Positions 2,673-38,632 are shown, numbered from the stretch's first letter. The stretch is 64,000 bases of DNA from an uncultured Candidatus Berkelbacteria bacterium (GCA_903851235.1 CAINNR010000030.1:13210-77209); one strand, 5' to 3'. Notes: a model not told the origin generated them from the letters alone. Numbers and translations: made by a program.

Positions 2673-3932
2673 ATGTTAGATATTGAACTGATACGAAAAG
2701 AACCGGAGGGAATTAAAAAAGCCATTGCCAGAAAGGGCGCCGATCCGGCTTTAATCGACGAAGTGGTTTTGATTGATCGCAATCGTCGCCGAGTGTTATC
2801 CGAACTGGAACGGGCGCAGTCGGAGTTAAATCGCCACTCAAAGGACATCGCCAATTTGCACGGTCAGCAAAAAATTGATGCTATCAACAACGCCGGAATT
2901 TGGTCGGCCAAAGTCAAAGAGTTAAAACCGGAGGCTGATCGATCGCAAAGGGAGTTTGTGGATATAATGCTCCTAATTCCGAATCCGCCACTCGCCGATG
3001 TTATCGACGGCGCATCCGACAAAGAAAACACCGTAAACCGTACTGTCGGGGAGATATCGAAATTTTCCTTCAAACCACTCGATCATGTTGAGTTGGGAGA
3101 AAAACTCGACCTAATTGACATCGAACGCGCTGGAAAAATCTCCGGTTCACGCTTTTATTTTTTGAAAAATGAATTGGTCCAACTGGAGTTTGCCTTAGCG
3201 CAATATGCGATGGAGATCCTGACGGCAGAAAAATTTGTGCCGATGATCACACCGGTGCTTTTAAACCGCGAAGCAATGACTGGCGCCGGATATCTGCCGG
3301 CCGGCGAGGATGAAATTTATAAAACTCAGGATGACTTGTATTTGGTTGGAACGTCGGAGCAACCGCTGGCCGGATATCACAGTAATGAAATTATTGATGG
3401 AAAAAATTTGCCCTTACGTTACGCCGGGTTTTCTAGCTGTTTCAGGCGCGAAGCCGGCAGCCATGGTAAAGATGTCCGGGGGATTCTACGGGCGCACCAA
3501 TTTGACAAAGTTGAAATGTTTTCCTTTTGCTTGCCGGAAAATTCAGAAAAGGAACATGAATATTTGGTCTCGCTGGAGGAAAAAATCGTTTCCGGTCTCG
3601 GATTGCCATATCAAATTGTTAATATTTGTGCCGGCGATTTGGGCTCCCCGGCGGTGAAAAAATATGATGTTGAAACTTGGATGCCGGGGCAAGACCAATA
3701 TCGGGAAACCCACTCCTGTTCAAATTGCACTGATTTTCAAGCTCGTCGTCTTAATATCCGATATCGCGACAAAGACGGCAAGGTTGCGCCGCTCCACACT
3801 TTAAATGGCACGGCAATTGCCATTGGTCGAATGCTGATCGCGATTATGGAAAACGGCCAGCAAAAAGACGGCAGTATCAAAATCCCGGAAATACTTCACA
3901 AATCTCTTAATTTCAAGGAAATTAAGAGATAA
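2673..3932 (+). CDS. serS: seryl-tRNA synthetase
   Basis: N-terminal coiled-coil arm plus class II core (GYHSNEIIDGKNLPLRYAGFSSCFRREAGSHGKD). Confidence 0.95.
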   Translation: MLDIELIRKEPEGIKKAIARKGADPALIDEVVLIDRNRRRVLSELERAQSELNRHSKDIANLHGQQKIDAINNAGIWSAKVKELKPEADRSQREFVDIMLLIPNPPLADVIDGASDKENTVNRTVGEISKFSFKPLDHVELGEKLDLIDIERAGKISGSRFYFLKNELVQLEFALAQYAMEILTAEKFVPMITPVLLNREAMTGAGYLPAGEDEIYKTQDDLYLVGTSEQPLAGYHSNEIIDGKNLPLRYAGFSSCFRREAGSHGKDVRGILRAHQFDKVEMFSFCLPENSEKEHEYLVSLEEKIVSGLGLPYQIVNICAGDLGSPAVKKYDVETWMPGQDQYRETHSCSNCTDFQARRLNIRYRDKDGKVAPLHTLNGTAIAIGRMLIAIMENGQQKDGSIKIPEILHKSLNFKEIKR

Positions 3933-31840: not shown

Positions 31841-32155
31841 ATGGTTGATAAAAATATAAAATCAACGAATAATTCTTGGGTTGCGAATGTTGCCCAACTA
31901 GCTCGGATTGAACTCACCAATGCCGAGGAAACCAAATTTGCCGGCCAGCTCGGCGCGGTTTTGGAGAATTTTGAACTCTTAAATCAAGTTTATACCGACA
32001 ATGTCGAAATTACCGCTCAGGTCACCGGGCTGACCAATGTTTTTCGCTCCGACGAAGTAAAAAATCCCGCTGGTAAAAAATCCCGCGACGAACTTTTATC
32101 AAATGCACCGGAAGTAGAAGACGGTTCGATAAAAGTCCCAGGAGTTTTTCAATAA
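31841..32155 (+). CDS. gatC: Asp/Glu-tRNA(Asn/Gln) amidotransferase subunit C
   Basis: VAQLARIELTNAEETKFAGQLGAVLENFELLNQV is typical GatC. Start placed at the ATG downstream of the promoter. Stop overlaps the gatA start. Confidence 0.8.
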   Translation: MVDKNIKSTNNSWVANVAQLARIELTNAEETKFAGQLGAVLENFELLNQVYTDNVEITAQVTGLTNVFRSDEVKNPAGKKSRDELLSNAPEVEDGSIKVPGVFQ

Positions 32156-33633
32156 TGACTGATTTATATAAACTAACAATTTCGGAAGCGGCGAAAAAGC
32201 TGAAAACCGGCGAGATTACCTCGCTGGATTTAACGCAATCCTGTTTGGATCGAATCGCCGAAGTTGAGCCGAAAATTCAGGCGTTTATTACCATTTGCAA
32301 CCAATCGGCAATTTCGCAAGCGAAGGAAAGTGATAGGCGTAGAACTGAAAACAAACCGCTTTCCGACCTCGACGGAGTTCCTTTTGCCGCCAAGGATTTG
32401 TTTTGTACCAAAGGAGTTTTGACAACGGCGGCTTCAAAAATTCTTAATGATTTTGTCCCCGATTTTGAGTCAACGGTGACAAAAAAATTGCTTGACGCCG
32501 GTTGTGTGCTTTTAGGCAAAACCAATCTTGATCAATTTGCAATGGGTTCATCAACTGAAACTTCGGCCTACAAAACGACAAAAAATCCTTGGGACTTGGC
32601 TCGCGTTCCCGGTGGATCGTCGGGTGGCTCGGCTGCTGCTGTTGCGGCCGATGAATGTATTTTTTCTTTGGGCACCGATACTGGCGGTTCAATCCGTCAG
32701 CCGGCATCGCTTTGCAGCGTCGTCGGACTAAAACCAACCTACGGTCGAGTCAGCCGATACGGCGTAATCGCAATGGCGTCGTCGCTTGATACCATCGGTC
32801 CGATCACCAAAACTGTTGAAGACGCGGCGATTGTGATGAATGTCATCGCCGGAATTGATGATAAAGACTCAACAACACTGCCGAATAAAACTCCGAATTA
32901 TAAAAAATCATTGGCCGGTGACATCTCCGGTTTGAAAATCGGAGTTCCAAAAGAGTTTTTTGGTCAAGGCATGAACAGCGAAGTTGAAAAGATCGTTCAA
33001 AGTGCGATTGATTTTTACCGGAGAAACGGCGCAGAAATTGTCGAAGTTTCTTTACCTCATGTAAAATACGCCCTTTCTGTCTACTATATTATTATGCCGG
33101 CGGAGGTCGCTTCGAATTTAGCCAGATTTGATGGTATCAGGTACGGTTATTCAAAAATCAAGAACCAAAAATCGGCGATAAAAAATCTGGAGGATGTTTA
33201 CATTTCCAGTCGAACCGAGGGTTTCGGCGATGAAGCCAAGCGGCGAATAATTTTGGGTAATTATGTTCTGTCCTCCGGTTATTACGACGCCTATTACAAG
33301 AAAGCTCAGCAGGTCCGAACTTTGGTCAAGAAAGATTTTGAAAAAGCTTTTGAAAAAGTTGATATTTTAATTACGCCTGTTTCACCAACCGCGGCTTTTA
33401 AAATCGGCGAAAAAACCGATGACCCGATGCAAATGTATTTATCGGATATCCACACGGTGCCAATAAATCCTGCCGGAGTGCCGGCAATTTCAATTCCCGC
33501 CGGTTTCACACTTGACAACTTGCCGGTTGGAATCCAAATCATCGGTCCGCATTTGGCTGAAGAGTCAATTTTCAAAGTCGCCAACGCTTTTCAACAAGCA
33601 ACTGATTTTCATCAAAGAAAGCCAAAAATTTGA
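32155..33633 (+). CDS. gatA: Glu-tRNA(Gln) amidotransferase subunit A
   Basis: Amidase signature GGSSGGSAAAVAA and catalytic Ser/Lys context. Confidence 0.95.
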   Translation: MTDLYKLTISEAAKKLKTGEITSLDLTQSCLDRIAEVEPKIQAFITICNQSAISQAKESDRRRTENKPLSDLDGVPFAAKDLFCTKGVLTTAASKILNDFVPDFESTVTKKLLDAGCVLLGKTNLDQFAMGSSTETSAYKTTKNPWDLARVPGGSSGGSAAAVAADECIFSLGTDTGGSIRQPASLCSVVGLKPTYGRVSRYGVIAMASSLDTIGPITKTVEDAAIVMNVIAGIDDKDSTTLPNKTPNYKKSLAGDISGLKIGVPKEFFGQGMNSEVEKIVQSAIDFYRRNGAEIVEVSLPHVKYALSVYYIIMPAEVASNLARFDGIRYGYSKIKNQKSAIKNLEDVYISSRTEGFGDEAKRRIILGNYVLSSGYYDAYYKKAQQVRTLVKKDFEKAFEKVDILITPVSPTAAFKIGEKTDDPMQMYLSDIHTVPINPAGVPAISIPAGFTLDNLPVGIQIIGPHLAEESIFKVANAFQQATDFHQRKPKI

Positions 33634-33635
33634 TC

Positions 33636-34682
33636 ATGAGCAAAAAAATCACAGTGAAAAAATACGATGTGATAATCATCGGGGCAGGTCCGGCTGGACT
33701 TTCAGCTGCTAAAATTTTAGCTGAAAATGGCAAAACGGTTTTGGTTTTAGAAAAAAACAAGGTGATCGGTCCAAAAGTTTGTGCTGGTGGTTTGACGACC
33801 AAGGATTTTAAACTCGGAATTAATAAAAAAATCGCTGATAAATTTTTTTCAAAAGTCGTTTTGCATACGCCGTTGTTTGATGATGAAATAAAAGATGACA
33901 AGCCTTTTGTTGCAACTGTTGACCGAGGCAGGTTGGGTAAGCGTATGGTTAAGGAAGCCGAAAAAGTTGGAGCAGAAATAAAAATAGATGTTGAAGTGAA
34001 AGATATAAAAAATGCTTTTGTTGAAATAGCTGATGGCAAAAAAATCTACTACAAATACCTAATTGGTGCCGATGGCTCAAATTCCTTGGTAAGAAAAATA
34101 CTGAATATAAAAAAAGAAACCCAAATGATTGCTTTCCATTATAAAGTTGCGGAGAGACTTCCTGACATTGAATTATTTTTTAATGCTGAATTGTTCGGTG
34201 CCGGTTATGCCTGGATTTTTCCGCACAAAGATTTTACTTCAATTGGCTGTGGCGCCGATATTAGATTTTTAGTGGACGCTCAACAGCTTGAGGAAAATTT
34301 CAAAAAATGGGCAAGAGAAAATTATCCCAAAGTCCAGTTTAAAGTTGATGATCGCGAAGCCTGGTATATTAATTATGATTACAGGGGCCACGAATTCGGC
34401 AATAAATTTCTGGTTGGCGACGCGGCAGGTTTCGCTTCCGGTTTGACTGGTGAGGGAATGTATTTTGCGATGATTTCCGGCATAGAAATTGCGAAAAAAA
34501 TAATTGATCCAGAATATAATCAATCAAAATTGAAAGAAATCATAGCATTGAAGAAAAAACACGAGGACATTCTAAATTTAATGGAGAAAAATAAAGTTTT
34601 GTCTCAAATTGAATATAATCTACTTGGATTGGCACAAAAAAGTCGATTACTGGACAGTCTATTAATTGAGGAATTTTGTTAA
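33636..34682 (+). CDS. FAD-dependent oxidoreductase, geranylgeranyl reductase family
   Basis: GAGPAG Rossmann motif, GADG, and GDAAG near the C-terminus. TTG at 33630 is an alternative start. Confidence 0.75.
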   Translation: MSKKITVKKYDVIIIGAGPAGLSAAKILAENGKTVLVLEKNKVIGPKVCAGGLTTKDFKLGINKKIADKFFSKVVLHTPLFDDEIKDDKPFVATVDRGRLGKRMVKEAEKVGAEIKIDVEVKDIKNAFVEIADGKKIYYKYLIGADGSNSLVRKILNIKKETQMIAFHYKVAERLPDIELFFNAELFGAGYAWIFPHKDFTSIGCGADIRFLVDAQQLEENFKKWARENYPKVQFKVDDREAWYINYDYRGHEFGNKFLVGDAAGFASGLTGEGMYFAMISGIEIAKKIIDPEYNQSKLKEIIALKKKHEDILNLMEKNKVLSQIEYNLLGLAQKSRLLDSLLIEEFC

Positions 34683-34688
34683 CAAACC

Positions 34689-35336
34689 ATGGGTAGAAAA
34701 CAACGCGAAAAAAAGGCAAGAAAAATAGAAGAGATGACGACTTTGGAGGAAGAGATGAAAGCCAAGGCTAATTTTTTCGACCCAAAAAAGTTTTTTTTGT
34801 CGCCAATCTTCATCATCTTTGTTATTTGTATTGTGGCTCTGATCGCCTACCCTTTTGTAAGCCAAAAGTATTTTCCGCAGGGGAAATACGCAATTTTAGA
34901 AACCTCCGAGGGCAATATTAAAATAGAGTTGCGAGCCGACAAAGCGCCAAAAACCGTTGCCAATTTTGTTTCATTGGCAAAATCCGGTTTTTACAAAAAT
35001 ATGATTTGGCACCGAGTGGTTAAAGGTTTTGTTATTCAAACCGGTGACCCGACCGGAACCGGAACCGGTGGCGCCGGGAGACAGGTCAATGATGAAATTT
35101 CCGATTTGAATTTTACCGCCGGTATTGTCGGTATGGCGAATGCCGGAGCCAACACCAATGACTCGCAATTTTTTATCACCACAGTCGATGGCCAAACATC
35201 ACTCAACGGAAAATATACTTCGTTCGGTCAAGTTGTCGAAGGCATGGACGTGGTAAAAAAAATTGAAGCGACACCAACCGATTCCAACGAAAAACCGCTT
35301 TCACCGGTTTATCTAAAAAGTGTGATATTAAAATAA
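34689..35336 (+). CDS. membrane-anchored cyclophilin-type peptidyl-prolyl cis-trans isomerase
   Basis: N-terminal TM plus cyclophilin core (FHRVVKGFVIQTGDP, GMANAG, QFFIT). Confidence 0.85.
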   Translation: MGRKQREKKARKIEEMTTLEEEMKAKANFFDPKKFFLSPIFIIFVICIVALIAYPFVSQKYFPQGKYAILETSEGNIKIELRADKAPKTVANFVSLAKSGFYKNMIWHRVVKGFVIQTGDPTGTGTGGAGRQVNDEISDLNFTAGIVGMANAGANTNDSQFFITTVDGQTSLNGKYTSFGQVVEGMDVVKKIEATPTDSNEKPLSPVYLKSVILK

Positions 35337-36077
35337 TGGAATCATTAGCAGAAAAAAATTTTATTTTTTTAGATGAGTCTGGAAAACCTGAAGTGTTTTC
35401 AAGTCGCGGAGTAAATTTAGTTGTAAAAAATCAGGCATCAAAATTCTTAGTTATTTCAGCGATCGGAACAACGGACCAACTTGATATACAAAGAAAAGTT
35501 ACAGCTTTTCGATCAGCTTTTGAATGATAACCAATTGACCAAAATTTTTTTGTCAGCGTACACACCAGATGCATTTCATGCGCAAGTTGATTACCCTGAA
35601 GTAATGGAAAAATTTTATGTTTTTATTAATTCTTTGAAAGAAAATAAAATAGATGTTATCGTGGTTGACAAATTGAGATGTTACGTGCCACTCCAACAAA
35701 ATTCTGGGAAAATGTATGGGGTTATGGCTGGACAATTATTGAAGAATATCTGTCATCAATCAAACAATACTGAGGTTATTTTTTCAAGAAAAGATAGCAA
35801 ATTAAAACTTCAAAAAGAACTTGAAGCCGAAGTAGAGAAAGTCCGGTTAGACTATTTACAGCAACATCCGAATTTAGATGCTAAATATTCATTGGCATAT
35901 CATCACAATCCACATTACACTCACGGTGCTTTACAAATAGCTGATTATATTTCTTTCGCGGTTTTTCAGGTTTTCGAAAATCAAAATAGAAAATGGTATG
36001 ATTTGGTTAAGCCGAGCATTGGCAAAATTCAAGATATATGTAATAAAAAATACTTCACTCGTAGCAACCCGCTGTAA
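35336..36077 (+). pseudogene. DUF3800-family gene split by a frameshift (ORFs 35336-35527 and 35481-36077)
   Basis: The first ORF begins with the DUF3800 N-terminal FLDESG motif. The second ORF carries the C-terminal HGALQIADYIS segment. Frames differ by 1 across an A-rich stretch around 35470-35500. Confidence 0.5.
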
Positions 36078-36290
36078 CTATCCAATTAAGGAAGTGCGAA
36101 CTTCGCACGTTTCATTCAGCGATTTGCTACCAATGAAGTATCTGTAGTAAGTATAACAAAGTGTGATAAAGTATGTCAATAGTCTAACAATAAAAAAATG
36201 GGAGGCGTTGCGACGTGACACGTAGTCAAGCGTTCGTTTGATCCTAGCATATCAAACTGTAAAGTAGTTTTTTCAAACTAAGGGAGAAAA

Positions 36291-36332
36291 ATGAGCGAAA
36301 CATTGAAACCGGAAAAGAATAAACAAAATTAA
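36291..36332 (+). CDS. possible 13-aa sORF MSETLKPEKNKQN with strong RBS, 4 nt upstream of the next gene
   Basis: AAGGGAG lies 4 nt before the ATG. May be a leader peptide or may simply reflect the RBS context. Confidence 0.2.
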   Translation: MSETLKPEKNKQN

Positions 36333-36336
36333 AATA

Positions 36337-36771
36337 ATGTCAAGGCGTAATCAACAAACCGTTTTAGAGAAAATTGTTCTGGGCATTTTTGCCGGGATTT
36401 GGTGGCTCGTGAAATTGCCGTTTCGTCGGAAAAAAAGTGGCGGAAAAATTTCTCTTGCCGACCAAAAGTATATTATGTCCAAACGTCATGAAATTGAAAA
36501 AATGGCCCAAAGTGATAATATATATGAGTTAAAGCATGCGGTAATTGAGGCTGATATATTGGTTGATTTTATTTTGAAAAAGCGTGGATTTGCCGGTGAA
36601 ACTTTTGCTGACCGGTTGCGTAGTGCCGAGAAAAAAATCGATCAGGCGAATTATCAAAATCTTTGGAACGCCCACAAAGTTCGAAACCAAATCGCCCACG
36701 ACGATGTGGAAATTAGTAAAGGACAATTAATAAAAGCAATAAGAACATTAATGGAGGATTATTATGCCTGA
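36337..36771 (+). CDS. membrane-anchored protein with C-terminal HEPN-like Rx4H motif
   Basis: TM segment LGIFAGIWWLV. C-terminal KVRNQIAHDD fits the HEPN Rx4-6H signature. Domain call is tentative. Confidence 0.45.
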   Translation: MSRRNQQTVLEKIVLGIFAGIWWLVKLPFRRKKSGGKISLADQKYIMSKRHEIEKMAQSDNIYELKHAVIEADILVDFILKKRGFAGETFADRLRSAEKKIDQANYQNLWNAHKVRNQIAHDDVEISKGQLIKAIRTLMEDYYA

Positions 36772-37213
36772 AGGATTACCCGGTTTTAATTCGGAATCAG
36801 TGACAAACCAACGACTTAGCCAGATTGAAAAAACTAGAGATAAATTAAATAATCTAATTTCTTCTCTGGCGTCCGGTTATCATTATTTTTTACCAACGGC
36901 AGCTCAAACGACAAAATTTTTTGCTGAAAGCAGCCCTGATTCAGCAGGCTTCCATAAAATGAATGATAGGCGGCAAAAGCTTGCGGAAATTGGTGTTGAT
37001 ATTAGTCGGCAGATGGAAGTTTATGACTTAACCCAAGAGGAAGTAAATAGTTACGAAGGGATTATTTCCGCCGCCAAAAGTTCGGGTGAGGTAAATGATG
37101 AGGAACTGGATGCAGTTGAAGCAACAGAAAAAAAGATGATTGAAATTTATCAGGCACTGAAAAAAATGGGTTACGAAGATAGTGATTTGGGAGTGGCCGA
37201 AACATCGGAGTGA
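36764..37213 (+). CDS. acidic hypothetical protein (149 aa), translationally coupled to the 36337-36771 gene
   Basis: ATGCCTGA start-stop overlap. No family recognised. Confidence 0.5.
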   Translation: MPEGLPGFNSESVTNQRLSQIEKTRDKLNNLISSLASGYHYFLPTAAQTTKFFAESSPDSAGFHKMNDRRQKLAEIGVDISRQMEVYDLTQEEVNSYEGIISAAKSSGEVNDEELDAVEATEKKMIEIYQALKKMGYEDSDLGVAETSE

Positions 37214-37216
37214 GAA

Positions 37217-38632
37217 ATGCCAGAGTTTAAAACCATAATCGGGCTGGAAATTCATTGCCAGCTGAAAACCAAGAGTAAAATGTTTTGCTCCTGTAATAAT
37301 AATGCTGAGAATGCCGAACCGAACACTTTGGTTTGTCCGGTCTGTTTGGCGATGCCGGGAACTTTACCGGTGACAAACCAAACGGCGGTTGAAATGACGG
37401 TGATGACTGGCTTGGCGTTTGGCTGTCAGATTCCGGTTGAGTCCAAGTTTGACCGCAAGCACTATTTTTATCCTGATTTGCCGAAAGGTTATCAAATATC
37501 TCAATATGATCAGCCACTTTGCAAAGGTGGAAGTGTTGAAATTAATGACCATATTATCCGTCTAAACAGAATTCATTTGGAGGAAGATGCTGGTAAGTTG
37601 ACTCATCCTGTTGGCAAAGATCACTCATTGGTTGATTTAAATCGGGCCGGAACACCGTTGATGGAGATCGTTTCCGAGCCGGATATTACTACGCCGGCGG
37701 AGGCGCGACAATTTATGGAGGAGTTGCAACTTGCGCTTCGTTATCTTGGAGTCTCAGACGCCGATATGGAAAAGGGACATTTGCGCTGTGACGCCAATAT
37801 TTCGATCCAAAAGAACGGGAAATCATCACCAATTGTTGAGATAAAAAACCTGAATTCCTTTAAATTCGTTGAACAGGCTTTAGCGTTTGAGGAGAAGAGA
37901 TTGACGGCGGATTTTGCCAATTGGCCGGAAAATCGACTTAAAATCACTCGCGGTTTTGATTCAAATAAAGGAATTACTTTTGAACAGCGACGAAAAGAGG
38001 AAGCGGCTGATTATCGCTATTTTCCCGAACCGGATCTACCGCCGATTCAGATTTCAGAGAGTCGGATATCAGAGATCAAGAAAGAAATCAAGGAATTGCC
38101 GAAACAGAAGCATCAGAGATATGTTGATGCCGGAATTCGGCCGGATATAGCGGAGAAATTGATTCGCCAGCCACAGCTGGTTGAATATTTGGAGAGCGCA
38201 GCCGAGTTGAAGCATGATATAGCATTGTTTGTTTCCGAAGAAGTTAGCCGGGCGTTGGTTGAAAATAAAATATCATTTGCCGATTATCAAAAACGCGTGC
38301 CGATTTCCAAAATCGCCGATTTATTGAATTTGGTCGGCGAAGGAATTATTTCAAAAACTTCCGCCAAAGAGATCTTCGCAGAAATGATAATGACAGGCGA
38401 GGCGCCGGCTGGTATAATTAAAAAGCAGGGGCTAGAGCAGGTTTCAGATTGCTCTGAGCTCGAATCGACAATCAATCGAGTCGTTGATGAAAATCCGGAT
38501 CTGGTTGAAAAATATCGAGCCGGGAAGACACAGGTTATCGGTTTTTTTGTCGGGAAAATTATGCAAACAACTAAAGGTAAAGCAAATCCGCAAGTCTTGA
38601 ATAGGTTGTTGACCCAAAGGCTTTCAAAATAA
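37217..38632 (+). CDS. gatB: Asp/Glu-tRNA amidotransferase subunit B
   Basis: IGLEIHCQL, Zn-binding Cys cluster and C-terminal YqeY-like domain. Confidence 0.95.
   Translation: MPEFKTIIGLEIHCQLKTKSKMFCSCNNNAENAEPNTLVCPVCLAMPGTLPVTNQTAVEMTVMTGLAFGCQIPVESKFDRKHYFYPDLPKGYQISQYDQPLCKGGSVEINDHIIRLNRIHLEEDAGKLTHPVGKDHSLVDLNRAGTPLMEIVSEPDITTPAEARQFMEELQLALRYLGVSDADMEKGHLRCDANISIQKNGKSSPIVEIKNLNSFKFVEQALAFEEKRLTADFANWPENRLKITRGFDSNKGITFEQRRKEEAADYRYFPEPDLPPIQISESRISEIKKEIKELPKQKHQRYVDAGIRPDIAEKLIRQPQLVEYLESAAELKHDIALFVSEEVSRALVENKISFADYQKRVPISKIADLLNLVGEGIISKTSAKEIFAEMIMTGEAPAGIIKKQGLEQVSDCSELESTINRVVDENPDLVEKYRAGKTQVIGFFVGKIMQTTKGKANPQVLNRLLTQRLSK

Follow-up and report, generated by a model that had tools for sequence, protein, structure and literature searches.

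The locus considered here raises the question of whether a HEPN-like gene, its small acidic neighbour and a broken DUF3800 gene beside them belong to one defence system or are unrelated. It lies at positions 35336 to 37213 of a stretch of 64,000 nucleotides (nt), hereafter the window, from an uncultured Candidatus Berkelbacteria bacterium (GCA_903851235.1 CAINNR010000030.1:13210-77209), and includes a frameshifted DUF3800 gene, an intergenic region (IGR), a gene for a 144-amino acid (aa) protein and an overlapping gene for a 149-aa acidic protein. The initial annotation, made from the nucleotide sequence, regarded the whole as a single degenerate mini-island of defence or toxin-antitoxin (TA) type. 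The alleged mini-island sits within the gatCAB operon, and the best explanation is that the stretch holds two unrelated things: genes of the gat operon (36337-37213) and a DUF3800 cassette (35336-36113). The 144-aa protein is best read as a housekeeping, membrane-anchored HEPN ribonuclease (RNase) co-expressed with GatCAB, a prediction to which we give a probability of roughly 60%.

To our knowledge, bacterial HEPN RNases are known almost only from conflict systems (TA modules, abortive infection, and CRISPR with Cas13 or Csm6), and we know of a function for almost none of the lineage-specific essential genes of Patescibacteria. Among eukaryotes, Las1 and Ire1 are HEPN RNases domesticated for housekeeping. 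In the family described below, which is not discussed in the literature searched, a HEPN domain with an intact catalytic signature appears to be a fixed and apparently indispensable part of a core translation operon. If the protein were an active RNase, it would provide a concrete handle on RNA metabolism in the Candidate Phyla Radiation (CPR), and a bacterial case of a toxin-type RNase domesticated for housekeeping, like Las1 and Ire1.

The HEPN-family gene, its partner and the gat operon

According to the open reading frame (ORF) map and the family scans, the genes of this part of the window follow the order gatC-gatA-GGR-PPIase-[DUF3800]-HEPN-partner-gatB, all on the + strand (GGR, geranylgeranyl-reductase-family gene; PPIase, peptidyl-prolyl isomerase; Table 1), and the HEPN gene is single-copy within the window. 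A scan of one genome per GTDB species returned at least 553 relatives; the best 80 loci, which were fetched, all belong to Patescibacteria (Berkelbacteria, Saccharibacteria, Kaiserbacteria, Paceibacterota, Uhrbacteria, Peregrinibacteria and Nomurabacteria). gatA lies upstream of the HEPN gene on the same strand in 78 of these 80 loci, and gatB is also directly downstream in 37, with a HEPN-gatB junction of -7 to +3 nt in most of them and start and stop codons usually abutting or overlapping; gatC precedes gatA in related loci. Three homologue contexts share a longer synteny: ligA, gatC, gatA, (variable), PPIase, HEPN, (small ORF or nothing), gatB, MscS, HtrA, prmC, prfA, L31. Berkelbacteria, Patescibacteria group and Saccharibacteria are the labels carried by the closest loci. 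In close relatives the stop codon of the PPIase gene abuts the HEPN gene; the HEPN start abuts or overlaps that stop (TAATG or TAA-ATG), with no Shine-Dalgarno (SD) sequence, in L001, L011, L013, L017 and L020. Since these starts adjoin an upstream stop and have no SD, translation of the HEPN gene seems to be generally coupling-dependent.

Divergence of the HEPN protein correlates with that of gatA (Spearman 0.52, p 6e-7) and of gatB (Spearman 0.61, p 3e-5). With an exhaustive profile search, 2,980 cluster representatives (clustered at 50% identity) were collected, and E was <= 1e-10 for 2,213. Because the gatA context is the same in 78 of 80 loci, divergence correlates with that of gatA and gatB, and PADLOC gives zero matches for the 144-aa or the 149-aa protein, the gene is not regarded as sporadic or mobile. 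Judged by these sequence comparisons, it is a vertically inherited core gene at gatA/gatB across Patescibacteria, and very probably not a mobile TA module. TA and defence systems are marked by a toxin that always comes with its cognate partner and by a sporadic, mobile distribution; the HEPN family has neither property. The single mini-island was therefore abandoned, as its HEPN gene is core in the gat operon and partnerless in most lineages. The initial annotation had itself named a match of the pair to a conserved housekeeping family among the outcomes that would speak against it, and this is largely what was found for the HEPN gene, because it belongs to a core gat-operon family.

A database search with the 144-aa protein gave 59 homologues (26-65% identity), all unnamed or "hypothetical", and from Patescibacteria wherever the source is stated. 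Twelve residues are invariant in a 37-member alignment (A72, D73, L75, G87, L94, W110, H113, K114, R116, N117, A120 and H121), and R116, N117 and H121 together make up an R-N-x3-H motif; RNxxxH is kept in 294 of 295 inspected family sequences. This motif matches the Rx4-6H signature of the HEPN superfamily with a polar residue after the arginine (R116-N-Q-I-A-H121), and the AlphaFold2 (AF2) model (predicted local distance difference test, pLDDT, 87.9) has a four-helix up-and-down bundle core, as in that superfamily. The nearest structures are HepT toxins, e.g., Shewanella SO_3166 (PDB 5yep) and an Aphanizomenon HEPN (PDB 7ae2); TTHA0636, YutE, the C-terminal domain of kanamycin nucleotidyltransferase (KNTase), Csm6, sacsin and GlnE are structural neighbours too. 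Foldseek concurs on the HEPN fold, with weak E-values. Scattered sub-threshold matches to HEPN families of Pfam were also obtained across the family, namely RiboL-PSP (8 members), Swt1 (5), pEK499_p136 (3; with a match at E 0.041), Apea (1) and DUF4145 (1). The HEPN assignment of the initial annotation is thus borne out: fold and catalytic signature are well supported by the model and the alignment, and the protein, which is basic (isoelectric point, pI, 9.7), is probably an active RNase. The family, without a Pfam or NCBIfam model of its own, is large and uncharacterised.

The resemblance to HepT toxins has clear limits. HepT/HEPN-MNT systems carry an adjacent MNT antitoxin, whereas here the neighbour is all-alpha and acidic and no nucleotidyltransferase occurs in the related loci examined; their RX4HXY motif includes an AMPylated tyrosine, whereas H121 is followed here by D-D and in the family mostly by E/D/Q plus a variable residue. 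Unlike HepT toxins, the window protein has a putative N-terminal membrane anchor, and its gene is core, single-copy and embedded among gat genes instead of sporadic and mobile.

Tn-seq (transposon sequencing) data exist for a probable orthologue, SEML1_0535 of Southlakia epibionticum ML1, which lies in the locus gatC (SEML1_0537), gatA (SEML1_0536), hypothetical protein (SEML1_0535) and gatB (SEML1_0534) (Wang et al. 2023, Table S1, PMC10633639). The gene (420 nt, 139 aa) overlaps both gatA and gatB, is flagged as core family (1) and as Patescibacteria-enriched (1), has Tn-seq calls GD/GD/ES (growth-defective to essential), and its normalised reads go from 126.6 to 5.9 and 2.8 over three time points (PMC10633639). 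In Table S2 it is labelled "DUF4145 domain-containing", with residues 26-135 in the ECOD group of 1wty, named "nucleotidyltransferase substrate binding subunit"; it is absent from the main-text discussion of Wang et al. 2023 (PMC10633639). This ECOD group has the HEPN fold, the same fold class as the 144-aa protein, and the HEPN genes of Saccharibacteria encode 139-141 aa at the same position (139 aa in L049 and L065). Unlike the window, the SEML1_0535 locus has no PPIase, DUF3800 or acidic partner. Insertions should be tolerated in the gene of a dispensable toxin, and the depletion of SEML1_0535 disfavours such a role.

The literature search returned no paper linking HEPN with CPR bacteria. 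Membrane-associated bacterial HEPN groups have been predicted as stimulus-dependent RNases (Anantharaman 2013, PMC3710099), a survey that covers neither the Patescibacteria family nor the gat context. Those groups, i.e., DUF4145 with a WP-signature transmembrane (TM) helix, Abi2/Swt1 with a TM helix and HEPN-2TM-Zn-ribbon, have in common with the 144-aa family an N-terminal TM or hydrophobic helix and a predicted cytoplasmic HEPN domain, and their RNA cleavage was proposed to occur at the inner membrane face (Anantharaman 2013, PMC3710099). They differ in that only 1 of 37 members of the 144-aa family has a weak DUF4145 match (E 0.08), and in that this family is enriched in Patescibacteria and tied to gatA/gatB, whereas no such context has been described for the predicted groups.

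The initial annotation had described the 144-aa protein by its C-terminal KVRNQIAHDD and an N-terminal TM segment; the former is present, but the latter is only a borderline hydrophobic helix (KD19 1.68; 13 residues in a row uncharged). In the remaining short forms the uncharged stretch is 6-11 residues long, and the helix of the short forms, the window protein included, contains a conserved E and usually a K/R. A clear TM helix appears in forms of ~200 aa, and the long forms have 20-26 uncharged residues and KD values of 2.3-2.8. Forms of 300-484 aa (e.g., P0147, P0193, P0114, P0127, P0136, P0142, P0175 and P0210) are arranged as TM1, 1-3 SH3b-like repeats, TM2, a charged linker and HEPN; the repeats follow the pattern "GP...WW.V.F...DGWV" and match SH3_3 of Pfam below threshold. 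Such an architecture resembles that of a sensor, and the TM1-SH3b-TM2-HEPN layout would place the HEPN domain in the cytoplasm.

An 8-nt overlap at 36764-36771 (ATGCCTGA) joins the 144-aa and 149-aa genes, which are, judging from this arrangement, translationally coupled, as had been proposed together with the acidic nature of the second protein (pI 4.60). A single-sequence database search with the 149-aa protein found only itself. A hidden Markov model (HMM) was built from the same-position ORFs of L003, L014, L015, L017 and L019, with the window sequence excluded. Against this model the window protein reached 33.4 bits (E 4.5e-9); among 1,800 shuffles (300 for each of 6 tested proteins) the highest score was 10.3 bits. 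The partner profile matched only 8 clusters in a database of 5.8 billion sequences. All family members are acidic (pI 4.4-5.4) and share the motifs [YL]NN[LF] and, at the C-terminus, "(F)L..Y.EK...Y..L"; the AF2 model is all-helical (pLDDT 73), with no informative fold match and no Pfam, NCBIfam or PADLOC match. The possibility of a degenerate second HEPN domain was considered and rejected, as hhalign finds the partner family unrelated to the HEPN family.

Members of the partner family were found in the window and in L007, L003, L014, L015, L017 and L019, with a fragment in L012. According to hhalign, L001, L011 and L016 have unrelated ORFs in the slot, which is empty in L005, L009, L013, L018, L020, L021 and most lineages outside the clade. 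On sequence grounds, the partner looks like a real, clade-restricted and fast-evolving addition and not like an obligatory antitoxin, because the slot is empty or occupied by something unrelated in most lineages.

The DUF3800 cassette and its 3' flank

DUF3800 is an RNase H-like domain with an N-terminal DE and a C-terminal QxxD motif, known from type VII retrons and some Cas12a2 systems (PMC7736814, PMC10910872). The initial annotation had observed that FLDESG and HGALQIADYIS lie in two ORFs in +1 relation, and this was confirmed for the ORFs of 63 aa and 198 aa; the lesion falls within the ORF overlap, though slightly 3' of the frameshift site it proposed (35470-35500; Table 1). The ATG of the gene overlaps the PPIase stop codon (TAATG). 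Each half matches its own part of the Pfam profile (PF12686), the two parts being complementary, with 17.3 and 18.2 bits; both scores fall short of the 21-bit cut-off only because the gene is split. Profile and DE/QxxD motifs are thus present and an intact frame is not.

An intact 248-aa homologue is encoded in metagenome contig L089, to which the reconstructed window protein aligns end to end with 68% identity and a single break; the N-terminal fragment corresponds to residues 6-61 of this homologue, and the C-terminal one is 71% identical to it. The same lesion, with the same 63-aa and 198-aa ORFs, is found in an independent ENA assembly (L007), which differs from the window by 6 single-nucleotide polymorphisms (SNPs) in 2,296 nt, and the same 198-aa ORF occurs in a third assembly (contig ERZ1426628). 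As the split recurs in independent assemblies, it is not an assembly artefact. Programmed +1 frameshifting was examined and rejected, there being no slippery codon or adjacent stop at CGATCA/GCTTTT, and we treat the lesion as an ordinary inactivating mutation on the basis of this sequence context. The SNPs between the window and L007 are at 36005, 36023, 36557 and 37270-37295. Both of those in the C-terminal DUF3800 ORF are synonymous, and two are too few to argue selection; the HEPN gene has one (I74K), and gatB has 1 synonymous and 2 nonsynonymous.

Among 90 loci, DUF3800 is present only in the window and in the near-identical strain L007, and the GC content of the gene (32.7%) is lower than that of its neighbours. 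Other related loci have different genes at the HEPN junctions (last rows of Table 1), so several lineages take up accessory genes at these junctions, and many of those genes resemble nucleases or toxins. Sequence comparison marks only one part of the alleged mini-island as an inserted accessory cassette, namely the DUF3800 pseudogene with its 3' flank. The window gene resembles retron type VII-A2 effectors and Cas12a2-linked TPR-DUF3800 proteins in its DE and QxxD motifs, and the DUF3800-I to -XI settings in its adjoining conserved non-coding hairpin. Unlike the retron and Cas12a2 systems, it is frameshifted and has no reverse transcriptase, Cas12 or TPR gene nearby.

The IGR between the DUF3800 and HEPN genes comprises 259 nt. 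It had been called GC-richer than its surroundings, which proved wrong: at 35.1% GC it is below both the window (41.1%) and the neighbouring core genes (38-44%), and only the DUF3800 gene is lower. The reported palindromes, the AAGGGAG and the 13-aa small ORF (sORF) are all there (Table 1). As for a structured IGR, the evidence is weak: short perfect hairpins are in excess (9 observed vs 2.6 +/- 2.0 in shuffles, p ~0.01), but the energy of folding the IGR as a whole does not stand out (z -0.77 for the + strand, -1.6 for the - strand). Conservation is confined to a 36-nt element that follows the DUF3800 stop directly; it occurs once in the window, where 0 matches would be expected by chance. 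It is 100% identical to positions 3860-3895 (-) of L090, a 44-kb IMG/VR viral contig of 52% GC without a DUF3800 gene, and its hairpin is identical in L089 (~1346-1385), although the coding sequence there is 72% identical. More DUF3800 relatives and hairpin copies were sought in viral contigs, metagenome contigs and INPHARED phages, and only L089 and L090 were obtained, which makes three copies in total in the collections searched.

The element may act as a terminator, as an RNA motif or as a recombination site. A tRNA or att site was rejected, there being no tRNA genes in the window, L089 or L090; ARAGORN gave zero tRNA or tmRNA genes across the 64-kb window. Around DUF3800 genes, eleven candidate RNA motifs with no relation to one another have been described, several of which include terminators (Weinberg 2017, PMC5737381), and the IGR flank matches none of the DUF3800 RNA motifs in Rfam. 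The Rfam and covariation checks proposed in the initial annotation turned out negative: there was no Rfam match with E <= 1 over 35000-37500, none with E <= 10 over 36040-36360 or the whole of L089, and noise only in L090, and the consensus fold of the 3' flank has no compensatory changes, its hairpin being invariant in the three aligned copies. By eye, the outer stem has one possible compensatory change in L089 (CGCTG/CAGCG vs CGCTT/AAGCG). L089 also contains two tandem, divergent DUF3800 genes (the first, 143-322, cut by the contig end), each followed by a common non-coding block (87% over 78 nt plus 23/23 nt; 382-458/517-539 and 1410-1486/1483-1505), which recalls the known link between DUF3800 genes and RNA motifs but has no match to an Rfam family. 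A DUF3800-linked non-coding module is therefore plausible, though not demonstrated for the window.

Of the promoter-like sites in the region, the best lies in the IGR on the - strand at 36150-36179 (TTGACA, an 18-nt spacer and TG-TATACT; 11/12 positions). It points to the hairpin and the 3' end of DUF3800, and a short antisense or 3'-flank RNA is conceivable.

The history of the junction can be reconstructed as follows. The DUF3800 cassette with its 3' hairpin was inserted between the PPIase and HEPN genes and then inactivated by the 2-nt deletion. In the remaining IGR, the SD and the 13-codon sORF may restore coupling to the SD-less HEPN start; we infer that the sORF delivers ribosomes, and so re-establishes termination-reinitiation after the insertion.

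Competing explanations for the locus

In the housekeeping reading, the 144-aa protein would act as a metal-independent endoribonuclease, a dimer at the inner membrane face cutting tRNA or membrane-proximal mRNA, made in step with GatCAB; the 149-aa protein probably binds or modulates it. Housekeeping RNA cleavage by membrane-localised enzymes has an analogy in RNase Y and RNase E, to which the 144-aa protein is not homologous. A specific link to tRNA amidation is unproven and can be put forward only tentatively. Its boldest extension, a superphylum-wide essential membrane HEPN RNase coupled to tRNA-dependent amidation, is unlikely; in one version of it, cleavage of tRNA(Gln)/tRNA(Asn) or of gat mRNA would gate translation by amidation capacity, the SH3b long forms might respond to cell-envelope or host-contact signals, and the family would be a bacterial counterpart of Ire1-type sensor RNases, recruited from conflict systems into the core translation machinery of Patescibacteria.

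Several observations weigh against the housekeeping reading or loosen its parts. No Pfam HEPN model matched above cut-off and no NCBIfam model matched, and a profile search against PDB sequences found nothing meaningful. The helix of the short forms has conserved charges and an uncharged run of 6-13 residues, and membrane insertion of the window protein is uncertain. About half of the 80 loci have gatB non-adjacent, and conservation of gene order by itself leaves a functional link to GatCAB unproven. The orthology of SEML1_0535, although probable, is deduced from position, size and fold class, and its Tn-seq depletion could be a polar effect on gatB. Furthermore, neither the sORF nor the right half of the IGR has homologues.

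The same protein could also be a fixed core-genome RNase for suicide or dormancy that envelope signals switch on, by analogy with Ire1: a tethered, inactive monomer would form dimers under envelope, host-contact or phage stress and then cut tRNA or mRNA, arresting translation, with the acidic partner as an extra inhibitor in one clade. We consider this doubtful. HEPN proteins are typically conflict or stress RNases and membrane HEPNs were predicted to be stimulus-dependent (Anantharaman 2013, PMC3710099), the long forms place extracellular SH3b-like domains between two TM helices, the nearest structures are HepT toxins, and the partner is acidic, fast-evolving and translationally coupled; yet most lineages have no partner or ectodomain, the lock to gatA across the superphylum would be left unexplained, and a pure toxin should not show the depletion of SEML1_0535, unless gatB polarity explains it. 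The long SH3b forms may be likened, as a functional analogy, to eukaryotic TM-linked HEPN RNases (the KEN domains of Ire1 and RNase L, and C6orf70); unlike Ire1 and RNase L, the 144-aa protein has no kinase or other regulatory domain. The tight operon embedding, in which stop and start codons overlap between gatA and gatB, would also suit a non-catalytic GatCAB accessory, with HEPN as an RNA- or nucleotide-binding or scaffold module serving as membrane tether or in tRNA handover, all the more as HEPN folds are also substrate-binding domains of nucleotidyltransferases (the KNTase and GlnE neighbours, and the ECOD group name). This is distinctly improbable: non-catalytic HEPN domains usually lose Rx4H (Anantharaman 2013, PMC3710099), whereas the motif is all but invariant here, gatB is often elsewhere, and no nucleotidyltransferase is encoded nearby in the window or the three homologue contexts.

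The explanation first proposed, a classical type II TA or abortive-infection pair within a degenerate defence mini-island with DUF3800, now appears extremely unlikely. A basic HEPN protein coupled to an acidic one through an 8-nt overlap, HepT toxins as structural neighbours and an adjoining gene from a family of retron- and Cas12-linked systems do look like such a pair. What decides against it is the gat synteny of the HEPN gene and its divergence in step with gatA and gatB, together with a partner missing in most lineages and replaced by unrelated ORFs in others, the lack of an MNT antitoxin and of the tyrosine after the histidine (RX4HXY), the empty PADLOC result for both proteins, a probable orthologue that is not dispensable in Tn-seq, and a DUF3800 gene that is a separate insertion confined to the window and L007. 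In this sense, a HEPN gene plus a small acidic neighbour should not be annotated as a TA pair without a synteny check. For the cassette itself, it may be asked whether DUF3800 still functions, through frameshifting or as a split protein, with a structured IGR RNA as a new DUF3800-associated motif. The RNA motifs known to flank such genes (PMC5737381), the hairpin kept after the stop in L089 and in L090, the common block behind each tandem L089 gene, the two synonymous SNPs of the C-terminal ORF and the hairpin enrichment of the IGR all lean that way, but the 2-nt deletion has no slippery sequence or nearby stop, the C-terminal ORF is devoid of the DE catalytic motif, Rfam has no match at E <= 10, the consensus fold contains no compensatory changes, the whole-IGR z-score is not significant, and only three copies exist in all collections searched; we regard this as very unlikely. 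The housekeeping HEPN gene beside an inactivated cassette thus stays the preferred reading.

Feature map and neighbouring genes

Table 1. Coordinates of the features of the window and, in the last rows, of accessory genes at HEPN junctions in related loci.
Feature	Position	Strand	Evidence or remark
gatC	31880..32152	+	operon start; tblastn with GatC of L001, L003, L005, <=71% identity
gatA	32155..33633	+	ORF; 62-72% identity to Amidase/GatA genes of related loci
Geranylgeranyl-reductase-family FAD oxidoreductase	33630..34682	+	Pfam FAD_binding_3 1.6e-20; NCBIfam TIGR02032 164 bits, above cut-off
Cyclophilin PPIase, N-terminal hydrophobic segment	34689..35336	+	Pfam Pro_isomerase 5.2e-50; synteny L001-L021
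DUF3800 N-terminal fragment	35336..35527	+	FLDESG = DE motif; Pfam DUF3800 profile 1-43
DUF3800 C-terminal fragment	35481..36077	+	LQIADY = QxxD motif; Pfam profile 63-148; PADLOC DUF3800_VII 2.7e-11
Frameshift lesion, 2-nt deletion vs L089	35513..35516	+	alignment 'cgatca--gctttt'; tblastn break 35512-35517
Conserved 36-nt element with hairpin GTGCGA-ACT-TCGCAC (36094-36108)	36078..36113	+	directly 3' of DUF3800 stop; terminator-like score
Two palindromes, ACGTGACACGT and TTGAT...ATCAA	36213..36255 (36213-36223, 36238-36255)	.	no conservation elsewhere
AAGGGAG SD (36280-36286) and 13-aa sORF (36291-36332)	36280..36332	+	sORF ends 4 nt before HEPN ATG
144-aa HEPN-family protein	36337..36771	+	hydrophobic helix aa 9-26 (36361-36414); HEPN ~aa 40-140 (36454-36756)
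RNQIAH, Rx4H signature (R116, N117, H121)	36682..36699	+	invariant in alignment
149-aa acidic all-alpha partner	36764..37213	+	pI 4.60; ends 3 nt before gatB
gatB	37217..38632	+	Pfam GatB_N 6.6e-113, GatB_Yqey 3e-38; end of gat genes
PD-(D/E)XK_3 (PDDEXK_3) nuclease	L012 4556-4945		accessory gene at HEPN junctions
NYN RNase	L016 4086-4958		accessory gene at HEPN junctions
LPD3-like protein	L005 5401-5886		accessory gene at HEPN junctions
Bro-N protein	L022 5428-6327		accessory gene at HEPN junctions
RhuM/Fic protein	L023 5558-6565		accessory gene at HEPN junctions
D-Ala-D-Ala ligase and CoaE	L024 5074-6150, L063 5225-5797		accessory genes at HEPN junctions

The features in Table 1 lie in a Patescibacteria genome of low GC content (41%), and genes for an MscS-like channel and an HtrA-like protease are found downstream of gatB in the window. 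The start of the geranylgeranyl-reductase-family gene overlaps the gatA stop codon in the window, and the gene, which gave no tblastn match in any related locus, is a further lineage-specific insert in the gat operon. In relatives, the gap between gatA and the PPIase gene contains MazG (L001) or is empty.

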